64,000 nucleotides of DNA from Candidatus Cloacimonadales bacterium (GTDB lineage Bacteria; Cloacimonadota; Cloacimonadia; Cloacimonadales; JAIOQZ01): contig OY762463.1 of assembly GCA_963665815.1 (NCBI GenBank), positions 3,232,001 to 3,296,000 of the forward strand. The letters are read 5' to 3'. The translations under genes and the position numbers were made by a program. A model generated the notes under the pieces. It saw only the letters and a list, made by a program, of their open reading frames with translations. It was not told the DNA's origin and ran no database searches. Below, piece after piece: positions 15,469 to 48,480 of the stretch. Within the stretch, counting starts at the first letter, position 1, and each line of letters opens with the position of its first letter.

Positions 15469-16956
15469 CTATTTCATTAATACGATTTTCTTTATTTTTA
15501 TATCTTTATTGTTTGTTTTTATGAAGTATACTCCGGTAGAAACTTGCTTTCCTGCAACATCTTTCATATTCCAGCTTATTGTATTTCCTGAATTGTGAAG
15601 TATTGAGGAATGCACTTTCTGCCCCTTTATATTAAAGATGGATACTTCTGTATCTTCTTTTACAGCTTTGCTGAATCTGATATTCAGTGAATTACCAATT
15701 GTTGACGGATTGTTAACAATAATACTGTTTTCAGGTCTTGTAACATCATTTTCTTTCACAGAAACATTCTGCAGATCGAAACTCACATCATTCTGATCAT
15801 CATCATTTACTAAAATATGTGCTCCGCTGATATCCATGACATTACTTGCAGTGAATGTAATCTCACCGGTAAAATCAAATGTAGCAGGAACAAAGTCAAC
15901 CAGAGCTCCACTACCAAGCTGAAGCACTGCTTTTTGAGGGGAATGACCATCTGCGTCGTAGTAATTAAAGCTTACATTCCAGGCCCCCATACTGTTATCT
16001 GTAACAACATTTCTTATTTCCGGCAGTGTATTGTTCTGCGGATGAGTAAACTCAAAGTGATCATGGATCATAAGATTGAGATTAGTCATATCTGCAATAT
16101 TCGCATTGAATGAAGGCATAGTTGTAATCTGAAATGTAATTGTAGAGAAAGCCAGTGATTTTGTAGTGTTAGGCCAGGTTCCGAAGTTAGGGTCATTTGC
16201 CAGATCAGACATTGCACATGATAGCACTAGCAAATCATTTGCTGAGTCTTCATAGGACATAATATCACCTATTCTCTGAATATTATTCAAATCAAATGTA
16301 GTATCGATTGTTGCAGCTATCTTATATAATCCCGGTGAGATTAAGGCACCGAGATTTACTGTTTCAATCATCAGATATACGGTAGAGTCCATAACAACAG
16401 ATTCAGGATTAGCCAGTAAGGCAACATAAGCATAAGCTTCTCCCGAGAAGATATCTAATGTAGGATATCCGCCACCATTGTTCTTCATACCGACATAAAC
16501 TCTGTTATCGTCATATCCTGCGTAATCAGAGACAAGCTCAAGATGGTCGCTTCCTGAAACAGAACAATCACCGAGTGAATCCTGAGAGAAAAAAGTTAGG
16601 TCGTTAATTCCCGGATTAGCAGTATTAACCTCTTTTACCATAGCAAGCTGGATAAGGTTCATTATATTCTGTCTCAGATAGAACTGCTGTTCCTGCCCGG
16701 GGGTGACCTGATATGATATTCCGAATGTAAGGGTATCGGTGTTAGTTGCGATTTGTGATGTCCAACCGGATTGATCATTATACTGAACTTCCAGAGAGTC
16801 CCCTGAAACATTCAGAGTAGTGAAATCGAGTTGTGCATTTCCATCAGTTTCCATAGCACCAGTTCTGAGATTACCCCACATTGGGATAACTTCGAATTGT
16901 GCTGAGAGAAACTGTATACTAATAAAACAAACAAACAATAATAATAATTTTTTCAT
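15469..16956 (-). CDS. Secreted protein with C-terminal FlgD-Ig/T9SS-like sorting domain
   Basis: GGAGGA SD then ATG at 16956 (MKKLLLL, signal peptide); C-terminal IFNIKGQKV...STGVYF. Confidence 0.75.
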   Translation of the reverse strand: MKKLLLLFVCFISIQFLSAQFEVIPMWGNLRTGAMETDGNAQLDFTTLNVSGDSLEVQYNDQSGWTSQIATNTDTLTFGISYQVTPGQEQQFYLRQNIMNLIQLAMVKEVNTANPGINDLTFFSQDSLGDCSVSGSDHLELVSDYAGYDDNRVYVGMKNNGGGYPTLDIFSGEAYAYVALLANPESVVMDSTVYLMIETVNLGALISPGLYKIAATIDTTFDLNNIQRIGDIMSYEDSANDLLVLSCAMSDLANDPNFGTWPNTTKSLAFSTITFQITTMPSFNANIADMTNLNLMIHDHFEFTHPQNNTLPEIRNVVTDNSMGAWNVSFNYYDADGHSPQKAVLQLGSGALVDFVPATFDFTGEITFTASNVMDISGAHILVNDDDQNDVSFDLQNVSVKENDVTRPENSIIVNNPSTIGNSLNIRFSKAVKEDTEVSIFNIKGQKVHSSILHNSGNTISWNMKDVAGKQVSTGVYFIKTNNKDIKIKKIVLMK

Positions 16957-17022
16957 CTTATCCTCCAATATATAAACTGAAACAACATAATCAAATGTCA
17001 AGACTTAAATAGTAAAATTCAT

Positions 17023-17077
17023 GCATCCCCCCGTTTTTCTTGAAAATCTGACTTCAAGAAAAACGGGGGGATTCCAA
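17023..17077. mobile_element. Minimal (55 bp) non-autonomous element with ATCCCCCCG ends and long target-site duplication
   Basis: GCATCCCCCCGTTTTTCTTGAA-aatctgac-TTCAAGAAAAACGGGGGGATTCCAA, flanked by TTAAATAGTAAAATT at 17005-17019 and 17078-17092; same ends recur at 46276-46657. Confidence 0.8.
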
Positions 17078-17357
17078 TTAAATAGTAAAATTTCATTAAC
17101 AGTCAGTTTTGAAAGAATTAATCAAACATCTTGGGGAAATTAATGTGGATAGTAAGGGATAATAAAAAACATTTGACAAGAAATCTCCAATGCTATTGAT
17201 ATAGTAATGCGTTTGAAGTTTTATTTCGGTGTAGAATACTATATTTGAAAATTCTCTGAGAATTAAAAGGTGTATACATAAAAGTAATGAGCTTTTGCAT
17301 ATATGTATTAATATGATTAACTTAAGAAACTGGTTAACTTAAAATTATTTTTTACCA

Positions 17358-42693: not shown

Positions 42694-42792
42694 GCATTTT
42701 CGTCTTTTTCTCTTGTATAGTAAATTTTTCCGTTAAGAAATCCTGAAGCCTTGGAAGGATTTCAGGGAAGATTTATGGTTTCGACTTGTTGA
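42694..42792. repeat. ~99 bp dispersed repeat, inverted copy of 46426-46523
   Basis: Reverse complement aligns nearly base-for-base, e.g. AAATCCTTCCAAGGCTTCAGGATTTCTTAACGGAAAAATTTACTATACAAGAGAAAA. Confidence 0.9.
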
Positions 42793-44896: not shown

Positions 44897-46072
44897 CTAT
44901 GAATCGAATTTTTTATTCAGTAGTGGGAGGATTTCGAACAAATCTCCAACTATACCGATGTCTGCCATTTTGAAGATAGGAGCATCCGGATCTTTATTTA
45001 TTGCAATTATATAATCGGATGATGACATACCTGCCAGATGCTGAATAGCACCGGAGATTCCGACTGCAATGTATATTTTAGGTTTAATAGTTTTACCGGT
45101 TTGGCCAACTTGATGAGGATAGGAAATCCACTCAGAATCAACTGCTGCTCTGGAAGCCCCTACAGCACCATCAAGGTGTTTTGCAAGTTTATGAAGCATA
45201 TCAAAGTTTTTGGGTTCTTTGAGACCTCTACCACCGGAAACGACGAAATTAGCTTCGGTAATGTTAACTGTCTGGGTTTCGTCCTTTGTATAGCCTTTGT
45301 ATTCTGAATTCAGTTTATCGAACTCGACTTCTTCTACGATGACAGTCCCGGAACGAGTTGTGTCTTTTGCGCATGGAGTCATTACTTTATGACGTACTGT
45401 AGCCATTTGCGGACGGTGGTTAGGTGTTACAATTGTTGCCATAATGTTACCACCGAAGGCTGGTCTTGTCTGAAGAAGATCACCGGATTCAGAATCTATT
45501 TCCAGACCTGTACAATCGGCTGTCAAACCTGTTTCCAAGTTCACAGCTACACGAGGAATGAATGATCTTCCAAGATTTGTAGCACCGCATAAAACGATTT
45601 CTGGTTTGTATTTACTGATTAATGTACTGAATACTTTTGAGTATGGCACATCAAGGAAATCTTTTAATACAGGGTTATTCACAACGATAACTTTATCTGC
45701 TCCGTAAGCGATAAGTTCTTCGGATAAATGTTCAACATTTTCACCGAAAACAACTGCTGTGAGTTCGTTTTCAATCTGATCAGCCAGTTCTCTTCCTTTA
45801 CCAAGCAGTTCAAAAACAACCTGCGCAATTTCATTATTATGCTGTTCAGCGAATACCCATACACCTTTATATGCACTTTTGTCTATAGCTTCTTTTTGTT
45901 GTTTTCTTACGAATATTGCATCGAACGGACAAGCACTGACACAAGCTCCACAAAGTGTACATTTATCTGCATCAATTTCAGCGAGTTTGTCATTAATAGC
46001 AATAGCATCATAAGCACATGCTTTCAAGCAGGCTCCGCATCCAATACATTTTTCGACAATAACTTCAATCAT
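44897..46072 (-). CDS. etfA: Electron transfer flavoprotein alpha subunit with N-terminal 2x[4Fe-4S] ferredoxin domain
   Basis: CIGCGAC..AC, CTLCGAC..CP; GLTADC, RPAFGG, QVGQTG, GISGAIQH. Confidence 0.93.
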   Translation of the reverse strand: MIEVIVEKCIGCGACLKACAYDAIAINDKLAEIDADKCTLCGACVSACPFDAIFVRKQQKEAIDKSAYKGVWVFAEQHNNEIAQVVFELLGKGRELADQIENELTAVVFGENVEHLSEELIAYGADKVIVVNNPVLKDFLDVPYSKVFSTLISKYKPEIVLCGATNLGRSFIPRVAVNLETGLTADCTGLEIDSESGDLLQTRPAFGGNIMATIVTPNHRPQMATVRHKVMTPCAKDTTRSGTVIVEEVEFDKLNSEYKGYTKDETQTVNITEANFVVSGGRGLKEPKNFDMLHKLAKHLDGAVGASRAAVDSEWISYPHQVGQTGKTIKPKIYIAVGISGAIQHLAGMSSSDYIIAINKDPDAPIFKMADIGIVGDLFEILPLLNKKFDS

Positions 46073-46275
46073 TTGAGCTCCTTAAAAGTAATAAATATAA
46101 TTTTCAGCATAATCAAATTTCAAAATTTTTTTTATTCTTAAGTAAATCTTATATGCCTGAGAAGTAGTGTTATATAACGATTTAAGCATATTAGACAGAT
46201 TTTAGATTATGCAAAACTTTTATCTGTTATATAAAATTGAGAATAAATGGTGTGTCAAGTATTTTTGTTTACCTA

Positions 46276-46657
46276 TTGGAATCCCCCCGTTTTTTCTTGA
46301 AAATCTGACTTCAAGAAAATTGGAAGGATTTTTAGCAGACATTTCTTAGAAAAATGCATTCTTCATTTTCTTTGGTGCCAAAGAAAACGAAACAAAAGAA
46401 AGGCACTCTTTTTCTAAATGTATTTTCAGCAAGCTGAAACCATAAATCTTTCCTAAAATCCTTCCAAGGCTTCAGGATTTCTTAACGGAAAAATTTACTA
46501 TACAAGAGAAAAGACGAAAATGCTATCATCAATGCAAAACAATCATACTTAGTTCAAAGCTATTACATTGATTCATATTTTCCACTGATTTACTGTTTCA
46601 AAACTTTTATTTATAATAAGTTATACATACATTGTATTTGGTTTTCGGGGGGATGCC
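46276..46657. mobile_element. ~381 bp non-autonomous element with ATCCCCCCG ends and 16-17 bp target-site duplication
   Basis: Starts TTGGAATCCCCCCG, ends CGGGGGGATGCC; TATTTTTGTTTACCTAT at 46260-46276 and 46658-46674. Confidence 0.82.
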
Positions 46658-46722
46658 TATTTTTGTTTACCTATACTATCAAAACTGAATGAGATTGTGT
46701 GCTTTGGGTAATATCTGACTGC

Positions 46723-48480
46723 CTATTTCAGCAATACAGCTTTGCTCACTGATGTCTTTTTATCAACCTTAAGTTTTATCAGATAGACTCCTGAAGAATT
46801 ACTCTGTGAGCTTTCTCCACTGTCCCATGTAATTTCATGTCTGCCTTTGCTATAGACTTTATCTGTCAGAATAGCAATCTTTTGTCCTTTAATATTAAAC
46901 ACTGTGCATTCCACTTTTGCAGAATTCTGAGCTATATTAAAACTGATATTCAACCTTGGATTGAATGGGTTTGGATACACTGAAAAACCTGCAATATCAT
47001 TATAGTTTGAGTTATCTTCAGAAGAAGCGTTCGGCATAATAATTGAAAGGTTTGTAATGCTGTCCTGATAGACCTCAACATTATTCACAATGTACGGATC
47101 ATAGTCGGGATGCTCTATTCTGAGAGTATACATTCCCGGATCAAGTATTCTGTAGAATCGACCATACAAAGAATCAGATTTGAAAGGTTCAACAGTAGAG
47201 TAACCTGTCTGATCATCAACTTCCTCGACATAAACATCACAAATTAAAGGTTCACCAAGTGAGTTAGTGACTTTACCGTATATTGTACTGTGATTGACTC
47301 TATTCATCATAACAATTGGTGCATATCGATTTGCAATACAGATCGCATCAATTTCTTCAGGTATGTATTCGTCACCGAGCTCAATAGTGTAACCGAAAAT
47401 TCTTTCTTCCGAATAACTCCAGTCACCCATTGTTCCCTGGCATGTATAGTTGAAATTGTTTGCCTGATAATAGCCATAAGTATTAGGGCTGTTCAATTTT
47501 GGAATAGTAACAGCCATATCATGAGCAAGTTGATGCATGTATAGACTGTCGAGTGATCTTGCTCCGTCAATATGTCCAAGGGGATATAGTATGTATTGTG
47601 CGTAAGAGTGGTACGTTATCCCGGCATAGAATTTCCTATGCTGAAGCAAATCTCTGATGTATTGTGTTTCTATTTCAGACCAGGCTTCAGGACCATGGTA
47701 AATGTTAGACCAGGGATAGTTGCTTGTTCCGTTATCCCCCCAAACATAACCAAAGTTCCTGTTCAGATCTACTCCGTCTACATTACCACCATCCGGAGCC
47801 ATATTATCATTATTGTCTCTTATATTCTTTCTGTGAGTCGTACTTGAATCTTCTATAACCATTGTGTATCCGTCAGGATTTATGATAGGAACAAACCAGA
47901 TTTGCTGAGAATTAACAATATTTGTTATTTCCGGATCGGTACCGTAGTTCTCAAGAATATAGCTGAGAGCAGCCATTGTAACCTCAACAGATATCAGCTC
48001 GTTAGAATGGATTCCACCCATGACATAAGCATTGGGTTCTTCCTCTTCCTGAGTAGGATTGTCAGAGACTTTCAAACACCAGACCTCATGTTGATAGTTC
48101 GCATAATTAGTGTTTCCGTTATTAAATAGTATTTTACCTGTGGAAGGTCCGAGAGAAGACAAATCAGTTATAGTCGGATATAGAATGGATAAAGTCTGAA
48201 GTTCCTGAATCACTTCAGTATAAGTTCTGTATAAGCTGGGGTCATTTCTCAGTGTTTTTTCTGTTATAACAGGATTATATCCCAGACCTCTTAAATCCGA
48301 GAGTTGCGATTCATCAATTATTATCTCAACGCAATCCGGTAATTCTTTGAAAGTAATGTTTCTTTCCGCCAGGATACTTAGATCGAACTCATCATAATCA
48401 TTAAGTCTGTAAAAATTGTCTGAAAGCAAAGGGATTGTAAACAGAACAAATACTGATAAGATTGAAAAAAGTCTTCTCAT
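46723..48480 (-). CDS. Secreted M14 zinc carboxypeptidase (carboxypeptidase T-like) with FlgD-Ig/T9SS-like CTD
   Basis: HSNE, NPDG, RKN, GVDLNRN, TYHSY, IELG; YPNPFNP...SSGVY. Confidence 0.88.
   Translation of the reverse strand: MRRLFSILSVFVLFTIPLLSDNFYRLNDYDEFDLSILAERNITFKELPDCVEIIIDESQLSDLRGLGYNPVITEKTLRNDPSLYRTYTEVIQELQTLSILYPTITDLSSLGPSTGKILFNNGNTNYANYQHEVWCLKVSDNPTQEEEEPNAYVMGGIHSNELISVEVTMAALSYILENYGTDPEITNIVNSQQIWFVPIINPDGYTMVIEDSSTTHRKNIRDNNDNMAPDGGNVDGVDLNRNFGYVWGDNGTSNYPWSNIYHGPEAWSEIETQYIRDLLQHRKFYAGITYHSYAQYILYPLGHIDGARSLDSLYMHQLAHDMAVTIPKLNSPNTYGYYQANNFNYTCQGTMGDWSYSEERIFGYTIELGDEYIPEEIDAICIANRYAPIVMMNRVNHSTIYGKVTNSLGEPLICDVYVEEVDDQTGYSTVEPFKSDSLYGRFYRILDPGMYTLRIEHPDYDPYIVNNVEVYQDSITNLSIIMPNASSEDNSNYNDIAGFSVYPNPFNPRLNISFNIAQNSAKVECTVFNIKGQKIAILTDKVYSKGRHEITWDSGESSQSNSSGVYLIKLKVDKKTSVSKAVLLK

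Follow-up and report, generated by a model that had tools for sequence, protein, structure and literature searches.

The Tn5/IS4 group is the best understood of the transposase families, and cut-and-paste transposition is the established chemistry of its Tn5-type enzymes. The hallmarks of the IS4 family, according to the available text of De Palmenaer et al. 2008 (PMC2266710), are a D(60-110)D(100-150)E spacing and a Y(2)R(3)E(6)K motif, and the target duplications of its IS4 and IS231 subgroups range over 10-13 and 10-12 bp, respectively. IS1634 and IS1549 are related to IS4 and make duplications of variable length (8-514 bp). Base-precise targeting of promoters in bacteria is documented for the Mutator-like elements TnGBS, ISLre2 and ISKra4 (PMC3942029, available text); for IS4-family elements, full-text searches of the literature found none.

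Here we describe a short mobile element of a Candidatus Cloacimonadales bacterium, found in a window of 64,000 nucleotides (the whole stretch analysed; contig OY762463.1, positions 3,232,001 to 3,296,000). We believe, with a probability of about 0.85, that it is a MITE, a non-autonomous element derived by deletion from insertion sequences (IS) of IS4-family type which form a Cloacimonadota-specific clade and encode a Tn5-like DDE transposase, and that its insertion is anchored at the -35 box and makes a duplication of variable length. The parent elements resemble the IS4 family (Tn5/IS50, IS10, IS231 and IS4 subgroups) in the DDE spacing, the YREK motif, the single ORF and the Tn5-like fold, as well as in ends that begin 5'-CA or CT; their duplication, at least about one helix turn long, overlaps the family range in part. 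Unlike that family, they insert with base precision and in one orientation 3 bp upstream of a -35 hexamer, and near-identical copies differ by 4-5 bp in a duplication that can reach 16-18 bp. TnGBS, ISLre2 and ISKra4 likewise insert ahead of the -35 box in one orientation, which is set by their unlike ends, but their transposases belong to an unrelated superfamily, their repeats measure 8-9 bp and the distance from their end to the -35 is 15-17 bp (PMC3942029, available text). IS1634 and IS1549 differ in that they reportedly lack a complete YREK motif, in a far wider spread of lengths and in that no promoter targeting has been described for them. Finally, the ISTde1 subgroup of the IS1202 family makes similar duplications of 15-17 bp, although its TGT ends and TnsB-like transposase, as given in the available part of its description, are different.

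The element at 46.2 kb and a 58-bp relative

The 17-mer TATTTTTGTTTACCTAT occurs exactly at window positions 46260-46276 and 46658-46674, and flanks an insert that starts with TTGGAATCCCCCCG and finishes with CGGGGGGATGCCTA. Its two matches in the window compare with 0.09 expected (two were reached in 0/100 shuffles), and the 9-mer ATCCCCCCG is present four times (17025+, 17064-, 46281+ and 46646-) against 0.05 expected, so that neither recurrence is a chance event. We defined the element ends by the parent IS together with a clean empty site at 17 kb in the sister species, which identifies CATGCATCC... and ...GGATTCCAA as its termini; the homologous ends of the long copy place it at 46276..46659 (+ strand), a stretch of 384 bp of non-coding DNA in which overlapping ORFs do not exceed 46 aa, at a site that lacks the element in the sister species. 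A preliminary description of this DNA had noted a non-coding insert of ~381 bp between exact direct repeats; the insert is indeed there, with its ends refined from 46277-46657 to 46276-46659. On the family end definition the true duplication is of 14-15 bp, the left copy (TTTTTGTTTACCTA, 14 bp, or 15 with T46276) lying at 46262..46275 and the right one at 46660..46673, and the 17-mer is exact because the terminal TA of the element (perhaps also a T) happens to equal the target.

The left copy of the duplication begins 3 nt after a TTGACA (-35-type) hexamer at 46253..46258 (- strand; TGTCAA on the + strand). This hexamer serves a leftward etfA-type operon, the gene of which (44897..46072, - strand) encodes the alpha subunit of an electron-transfer flavoprotein fused to a ferredoxin (Pfam ETF, ETF_alpha and Fer4) and starts 186 nt downstream of it. 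The promoter-facing end of the element (IRR type; 46276..46320, +) is made of TTGGAATCCCCCCGTTTTTTC plus the hairpin CTTGAA-AATCTGAC-TTCAAG and aligns with the promoter-facing IS ends of five other genomes (G006, G007, G008, G036 and G175), while the promoter-distal end (IRL type; 46625..46659, +), which closes with ...GGTTTTCGGGGGGATGCCTA, aligns with the distal ends of the IS of G036 and G175 (CA.GCATCCCCCCGAAA...). Between the two ends, at 46361..46521 (+), the element carries as internal cargo a repeat module of ~165 bp that is also found solo elsewhere in the genome and in the sister species.

The window harbors a second member at 17020..17077 (+ strand), a foldback MITE of 58 bp composed of CATGCATCCCCCCG, a hairpin with an 18-bp stem and CGGGGGGATTCCAA. 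It shows the termini of the 46.2-kb element in reversed order, is a foldback of two GTTTTT-type arms, and is flanked by 15-bp duplications, TTAAATAGTAAAATT, at 17005..17019 and 17078..17092. A TTGACA hexamer (16996..17001, -) lies 3 nt from the duplication, and a start codon preceded by a Shine-Dalgarno (SD) motif is found 45 nt downstream of the hexamer, at 16956 (-). The earlier account had placed here, at 17023-17077, an element of 55 bp with a long direct repeat of its own; the repeat stands, and the length is corrected to 58 bp.

Copies and empty sites

The genome containing the window (G000) is a single contig of 3.96 Mb with 36% G+C, and the sole genome of the same genus with which it was compared is that of a sister species (G001). 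A BLAST search of G000 with the insert disclosed 16 full-length MITE copies of 371-455 bp which, with a 116-bp deletion derivative, one copy without its far end and the 58-bp foldback, amount to ~19 in all. Two insertions are common to both genomes and three sites differ between them. At the etfA-upstream site, G001 carries a single TGTCAAGTATTTTTGTCTAC and no element. At the 17-kb site it reads TGTCAA-GAC-TTAAATAGTAAAATT-TCATTGACAG, with a single TGTCAAGACTTAAATAGTAAAATTTCATTGACAG and the element absent, so that the difference between the genomes is exactly the 58-bp element plus the second copy of the 15-mer. The third site (L008) holds a copy of G001's own, and the corresponding site of G000 is empty. 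These three empty sites prove insertion with target duplication and mobility.

These results bear out much of the preliminary description. It had proposed looking for an empty etfA-upstream allele with a single repeat, which is what G001 displays, and it had deduced insertion by staggered cutting, which the three empty sites support. It had also taken the insert for a mobile element devoid of transposase, and there is no transposase ORF inside an element that the empty sites show to be mobile; the variable cargo that it postulated is evident in the sizes of 58 and 384 bp and in the nested ~165-bp module. The element is thus a MITE in the usual sense, that is, short and multi-copy, without a transposase ORF, with terminal inverted repeats and a target duplication, and with ends common to autonomous IS.

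Some sites have a more complex structure. In three MITE copies of G000, a decayed second facing end follows the right-hand repeat (1295926-1295990, 2713798-2713830 and 3394090-3394110), and these copies, together with a tandem IS in G008, represent repeated insertion at one promoter. A divergent solo end, TTGGCATCCCCCCT..., with no recognisable partner end, is present at 2640828-2640863 (-) of G000, 17 nt from a TGTCAAT hexamer and upstream of a pyruvate dehydrogenase E1-alpha gene.

Parent insertion sequences

Of the 232 Cloacimonadota genomes, 40 matched the pattern TGTCAA-N12-22-GGMATCCCCC, one of them at as many as 28 sites, and none matched its reversed control. In G110 and G175 an ORF of 432-465 aa with the PF01609 (DDE_Tnp_1) domain lies between two such ends, and the full IS measure 1.4-2.0 kb. 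The MITE promoter-facing end, TTGGAATCCCCCCGTTTTTTCTTGAAAATCTGAC, aligns with CAGGAATACCCCCAATTTTTCATTCGAACCTGAC of a 1443-bp IS of G006 and G007, two genomes of the same taxonomic family as G000, and also with the IRR of G175, the end located 3' of the transposase gene. For the MITE distal end, TAGGCATCCCCCCGAAAACC, alignments were obtained with CAAGCATCCCCCCGAAATTT of G036 and with CACTCATCCCCCCGAAATTA, the IRL of G175. The ends conform to the motif C(A/T)GG(A/C)AT(A)CCCCC(C)G, after which one end continues with GTTTTT and the other with GAAA, and the GGAAT/GGCAT asymmetry of the MITE is also seen in the IS of G006 and G007. Counting against this parentage, the MITE termini begin with TT or TA and those of the IS with CA or CT. 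In the 2.0-kb IS copy of G110 (L057, contig C12), a leader of ~700 bp (304-1000) precedes the transposase gene and contains a second, internal terminal motif (CAGGCATTCCCCC) in the same orientation.

With the G175 protein as query, tblastn found the transposase in 80/232 genomes of the phylum, belonging to 31/66 genera, and gave 0 matches in G000 or G001. Searches of G000 with the end motifs, mismatches allowed, did not reveal any longer or autonomous copy with the MITE ends. Since the transposase gene is missing in G000 and G001, the ~19 copies of G000 are orphans, and their mobilisation in this genus, where neither genome has a full IS with these ends, would have proceeded as the relatives suggest. 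In a search of 5.8 billion proteins, 52 relatives were retrieved; wherever these bore a name, it was no more than "hypothetical protein", "transposase" or "Transposase DDE domain". The two named lineages nearest to the phylum were Candidatus Syntrophosphaera and Cloacimonadaceae MAGs. The exact end-plus-hairpin pattern yielded two matches among genome contigs, both proteobacterial and read as chance, and six among metagenome contigs, all of them chance; therefore, the MITE subfamily was not found outside its genus.

The preliminary description had held that the element was moved in trans, and the match of its ends with those of IS encoding a DDE transposase in other Cloacimonadota agrees with this. 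It had advocated the search for a copy enclosing an ORF, and in G110 and G175 the shared end motifs do enclose a DDE ORF. Its idea of an integrase that it could not name has to be given up in favor of a Tn5-like, IS4-family-type DDE transposase carried by full IS with the same unlike ends.

The nature of the ends also bears on two other origins. The element could be a MITE of the IS1202 family (ISTde1 subgroup) moved by a TnsB-like transposase, as the duplications of that subgroup are of similar length (15-17 bp, with no target known in the available parts of 10.1101/2022.12.17.520857 and PMC10132070). However, IS1202-family ends start with 5'-TGT (10.1101/2022.12.17.520857, available part) and those described here with TTGG, TAGG or CATG, the only rve-type genes of G000 are those of an IS3 element and a TniA/TniB module, whose ends are unrelated, and the IS on which both MITE ends occur encode a transposase that is Tn5-like (PF01609) and not TnsB-like. 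We consider this origin extremely improbable, in keeping with the earlier view that the ends are not those of IS1202. An integrase of Cas1 type, either casposase-like or an off-target Cas1-Cas2, has in its favor that casposon duplications are of ~14-15 bp and that G000 possesses one Cas1 gene, which by ORF size and position only we read as part of a type II cas2-cas1-cas9 locus. Nevertheless, this gene (305 aa) is located directly between ORFs of 124 and 986 aa, no Cas1 is present between MITE-type ends, and these ends belong to DDE-encoding IS and not to Cas1 elements, which leaves this possibility with a vanishingly small chance.

Several other candidates were discarded. The ATCCCCCCG sites at 1437204 and 2325981 of G000, considered as a possible transposon, lie in paralogous gene clusters. 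Comparison of G000 with itself and searches by family yielded the IS3 (1315 bp), the TniA/TniB module, an IS1182-like remnant and the Cas1 locus, none of which shares the MITE ends. A PRiA4_ORF3 gene situated beside an end (L037) was followed over 7 kb and no transposase was found.

The transposase

In an alignment of 34 sequences, D105, D195 and E337 were invariant, with spacings of 90 and 142 that fall within those of the IS4 family (PMC2266710, available text), and so were Y330, R333, E337 and K344, which compose the Y(2)R(3)E(6)K motif (Y330-x2-R333-x3-E337-x6-K344). The transposase is encoded by a single ORF without frameshift (432 and 465 aa, and many open frames of 430-475 aa). Its AlphaFold model (pLDDT 85.9) matched the Tn5 transposase over the full length (E 2.8e-14, TM 0.64/0.62), and Foldseek ranks 1-6 were all Tn5 transposase or its inhibitor. 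Against membership of the IS4 family, the NCBIfam IS4 models stayed far below cut-off, with IS4_1 as the best (43.5 bits vs 115) and IS701_2 nearly equal to it (41.8 bits vs a cut-off of 250), every IS4, IS701 and IS1634 model remaining far below its cut-off, and a sequence search of the PDB reached Tn5 at E 0.6-0.95 only. Considering that the hallmarks and the Tn5 fold are present but the IS4 scores are below cut-off, we file these elements as a divergent clade of IS4-family type. The duplications, of 9-16 bp in the IS and 10-18 bp in the MITE, both overlap and exceed the 7-13 bp of the IS4 family (PMC2266710, available text).

These features also weigh on a derivation from the Mutator-like, promoter-targeting elements. 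TnGBS, ISLre2 and ISKra4 insert in one orientation upstream of sigma-A promoters, at 15-17 bp from the -35 (PMC3942029, available text), and a MITE of such elements would share that habit. Yet their repeats of 8-9 bp and inverted repeats of 18-39 bp (same source and part) contrast with the repeats of 9-18 bp described here, the parent transposase has the YREK motif, the Tn5 fold and the PF01609 domain, and no Mutator-like chain appeared among the significant fold matches. Accordingly, we regard a Mutator-like parentage as highly improbable and retain the IS4-family-type clade as the source of the MITE.

Target site and orientation

In all G000 copies, the TTGGAAT end is preceded on its left, at a distance of a few bases, by TGTCAA, the complement of TTGACA. 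A GTCA(A/T) hexamer was found at 14-21 nt from the facing end in 19/19 copies, three of the hexamers being variants (TTGACC, TTGACT and ATGACA); hexamers were located by a GTCA(A/T) or TGTC(A/C)A anchor and, therefore, these counts say nothing on the tolerance to variants. When the repeats were called by a script with the right end fixed as GGGGGG-ATGC-(CTA/CTG/ATG), 10 copies gave clean repeats of 11, 13, 13, 14, 14, 15, 15, 15, 16 and 18 bp, and the gap from hexamer to repeat was exactly 3 nt in all ten. Six further copies were consistent with this rule by eye, with mismatches or gaps, the copies at 1444085 and 3937612 had no repeat, and one more lacked an end.

The autonomous IS were surveyed at 20 loci picked solely by their transposase match, ignoring the hexamer. 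Paired ends were found at 18 of them, corresponding to 19 IS copies (the two loci of G006 without paired ends were L095 and L096), and direct repeats of 9-16 bp in 18/19 copies, the exception being one copy of G007 (L099) that had none. At the 17 independent sites, the hexamer (TTGACA in 16, TGGACA in one) was exactly 3 nt from the repeat and the GTTTTT-type end faced it. The length of the repeat varied among near-identical IS copies within a genome, with values of 15, 16 and 16 bp in G006, 13, 14, 14 and 15 bp in G007, 11, 13, 13, 14, 14, 14 and 15 bp in G008, and 9, 10, 11 and 12 bp in G036. This spread among near-identical copies is direct genomic evidence that the two strand transfers are not rigidly spaced. 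The four promoter-proximal bases of the IS-site repeats were nearly always A or T, and the distal boundary depicted no consensus. MITEs of other genera (L047, L048 and L053) kept the 3-nt rule with repeats of 10-11 bp, and the MITE duplications span 10-18 bp.

The tabulation of repeat lengths over the genome and its relatives, which the preliminary description had suggested, thus brought to light other copies with repeats, of 9-18 bp. Its duplication of 16-17 bp is unusually long, as it had remarked, but it is not a fixed trait: the 14-15 bp observed at 46.2 kb are one value of a floating, family-wide and lineage-dependent length spread over 9-18 bp. The placement and orientation with respect to a promoter hexamer are the main feature of the element and were absent from that account.

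It could be argued that insertion is more or less random and that the promoter-adjacent copies are the survivors of selection, as all surviving copies are intergenic and insertions into genes would be purged. However, the precision to the base pair goes beyond what selection can do, since the distance is exactly 3 nt at 10/10 MITE and 17/17 IS sites (27/27) with a fixed orientation. Moreover, two full IS in tandem share one 14-bp repeat at a single site of G008 (L106, contig C1, 204400-209200), an IS-repeat-IS arrangement that corresponds to re-insertion at the same, already occupied site. We therefore judge survival of random insertions very unlikely, and take targeting by the IS4-family-type clade as the basis for what follows. 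Two IS, in G175 (L058, contig C1) and G110 (L057, contig C12), are located between back-to-back divergent hexamers (TGTCAA, ~14 nt, TTGACA), and each is therefore one insertion upstream of two promoters at once.

TTGACA as a promoter box

In the 40-69 nt bins upstream of the 2122 SD-preceded start codons of G000, TTGACA was present 216 times vs 25 for TGTCAA, and an SD-preceded start was found 44-88 nt downstream at 21/36 insertion sites. Its genome-wide peak at 40-70 nt upstream of starts marks TTGACA as a genuine promoter box. Only 2/36 insertion sites showed a canonical -10, with TAnnnT at a spacing of 16-18 nt, the peak at 19 nt was weak (5/36), and TAnnnT at 16-18 nt was not enriched either at these 36 sites or after all 2851 TTGACA of G000. 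Since a canonical -10 is rarely seen, the promoter reading rests on position and not on the full consensus, and the -10 element of Cloacimonadota looks non-canonical.

The insertion keeps the promoter core and replaces the DNA upstream of about -38. Two promoters of the window are affected in this way, that of the ferredoxin-fused etfA-type gene and that of the gene starting at 16956. A Tn5-like enzyme that parks its element beside -35 boxes while the promoter remains unbroken represents a "safe-haven" strategy, and the MITEs are of use in annotation as marks of promoters in a phylum without cultured genetics.

Proposed mechanism

The arrangement of ends, hexamer and repeats suggests the following course of events. 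A transposase supplied in trans would bind the two unlike ends, excise the element, presumably by cut-and-paste, and insert it beside a promoter. The 3'-OH of the distal (GAAA-type) end would attack the strand 3 nt from the hexamer, and that of the facing end would attack the opposite strand at a point 9-18 nt farther upstream, where the DNA is A/T-rich; repair of the gaps would then make the repeat. We infer that the -35 box anchors one of the strand transfers, the other being loose; with one fixed 3 bp upstream of the hexamer and the other free, a long duplication of variable length would be the consequence. The hexamer may be read directly by the transposase or through the sigma factor or RNA polymerase bound there; a Pfam search of the N-terminal 105 residues revealed no known domain for binding DNA, neither sigma-region-4 nor HTH, the lone match being Cap4_nuclease at E 0.014, below cut-off.

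A more general proposal, which we advance tentatively and with the balance of probability somewhat against it, is that this phylum-wide Tn5-like clade captures its target via the -35 hexamer, perhaps through bound sigma or RNA polymerase, in such a way that one transfer is locked 3 bp upstream while any of ~10 positions in the flexible A/T-rich DNA upstream is open to attack by the second active site. If true, this would constitute a "one anchored, one floating" target capture, a mode not described for DDE transposases, and would account for the unexplained variable duplications of IS4 relatives. In any case, the family offers a natural experiment on the tethering of a DDE transpososome to a promoter, and the old question of the variable duplications of IS4, IS231 and IS1634 becomes testable with a compact enzyme.

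The inner module and other observations

The ~165-bp inner module is a repeat family of its own, with 15 solo matches in G000 and many in G001; a partial solo copy lies in the window at 42694-42792 (-). The changes that distinguish its hairpins from one another are paired (TTCCAGCAAGCTGGAA, TTACAGCAAGCTGTAA and TTTCAGCAAGCTGAAA), and several solo modules begin a few bases after a TATAAT-like box. Rfam returned one sub-threshold chance match only for window positions 46000-46900, and RNAalifold gave weak energies for the inner repeat (-9.6 and -19.0). Two possible identities for the module are a small RNA present in many copies and a second MITE. Insertions of a small dispersed hairpin repeat, TTGATGAAAT-n-ATTTCATCGAA, interrupt two copies of the module, and this repeat is found in G000 at 1756470-1756571, at 2361763-2361960 and in the flanks of several solo modules.

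Outside the window, the Cas1 locus and the TniA/TniB module of G000 (contig C1, 69149-73348 and 89701-93561, respectively) lie ~16 kb apart. The latter, with TniA (rve plus Mu-transpos_C) and TniB followed by an ORF of 366 aa, is Tn7/Tn5053-like, and its TniA frame appears split (210 + 380 aa). Lastly, and in agreement with the placement of the genome in Cloacimonadota, a carboxypeptidase neighboring the 46.2-kb element bears a T9SS sorting domain.
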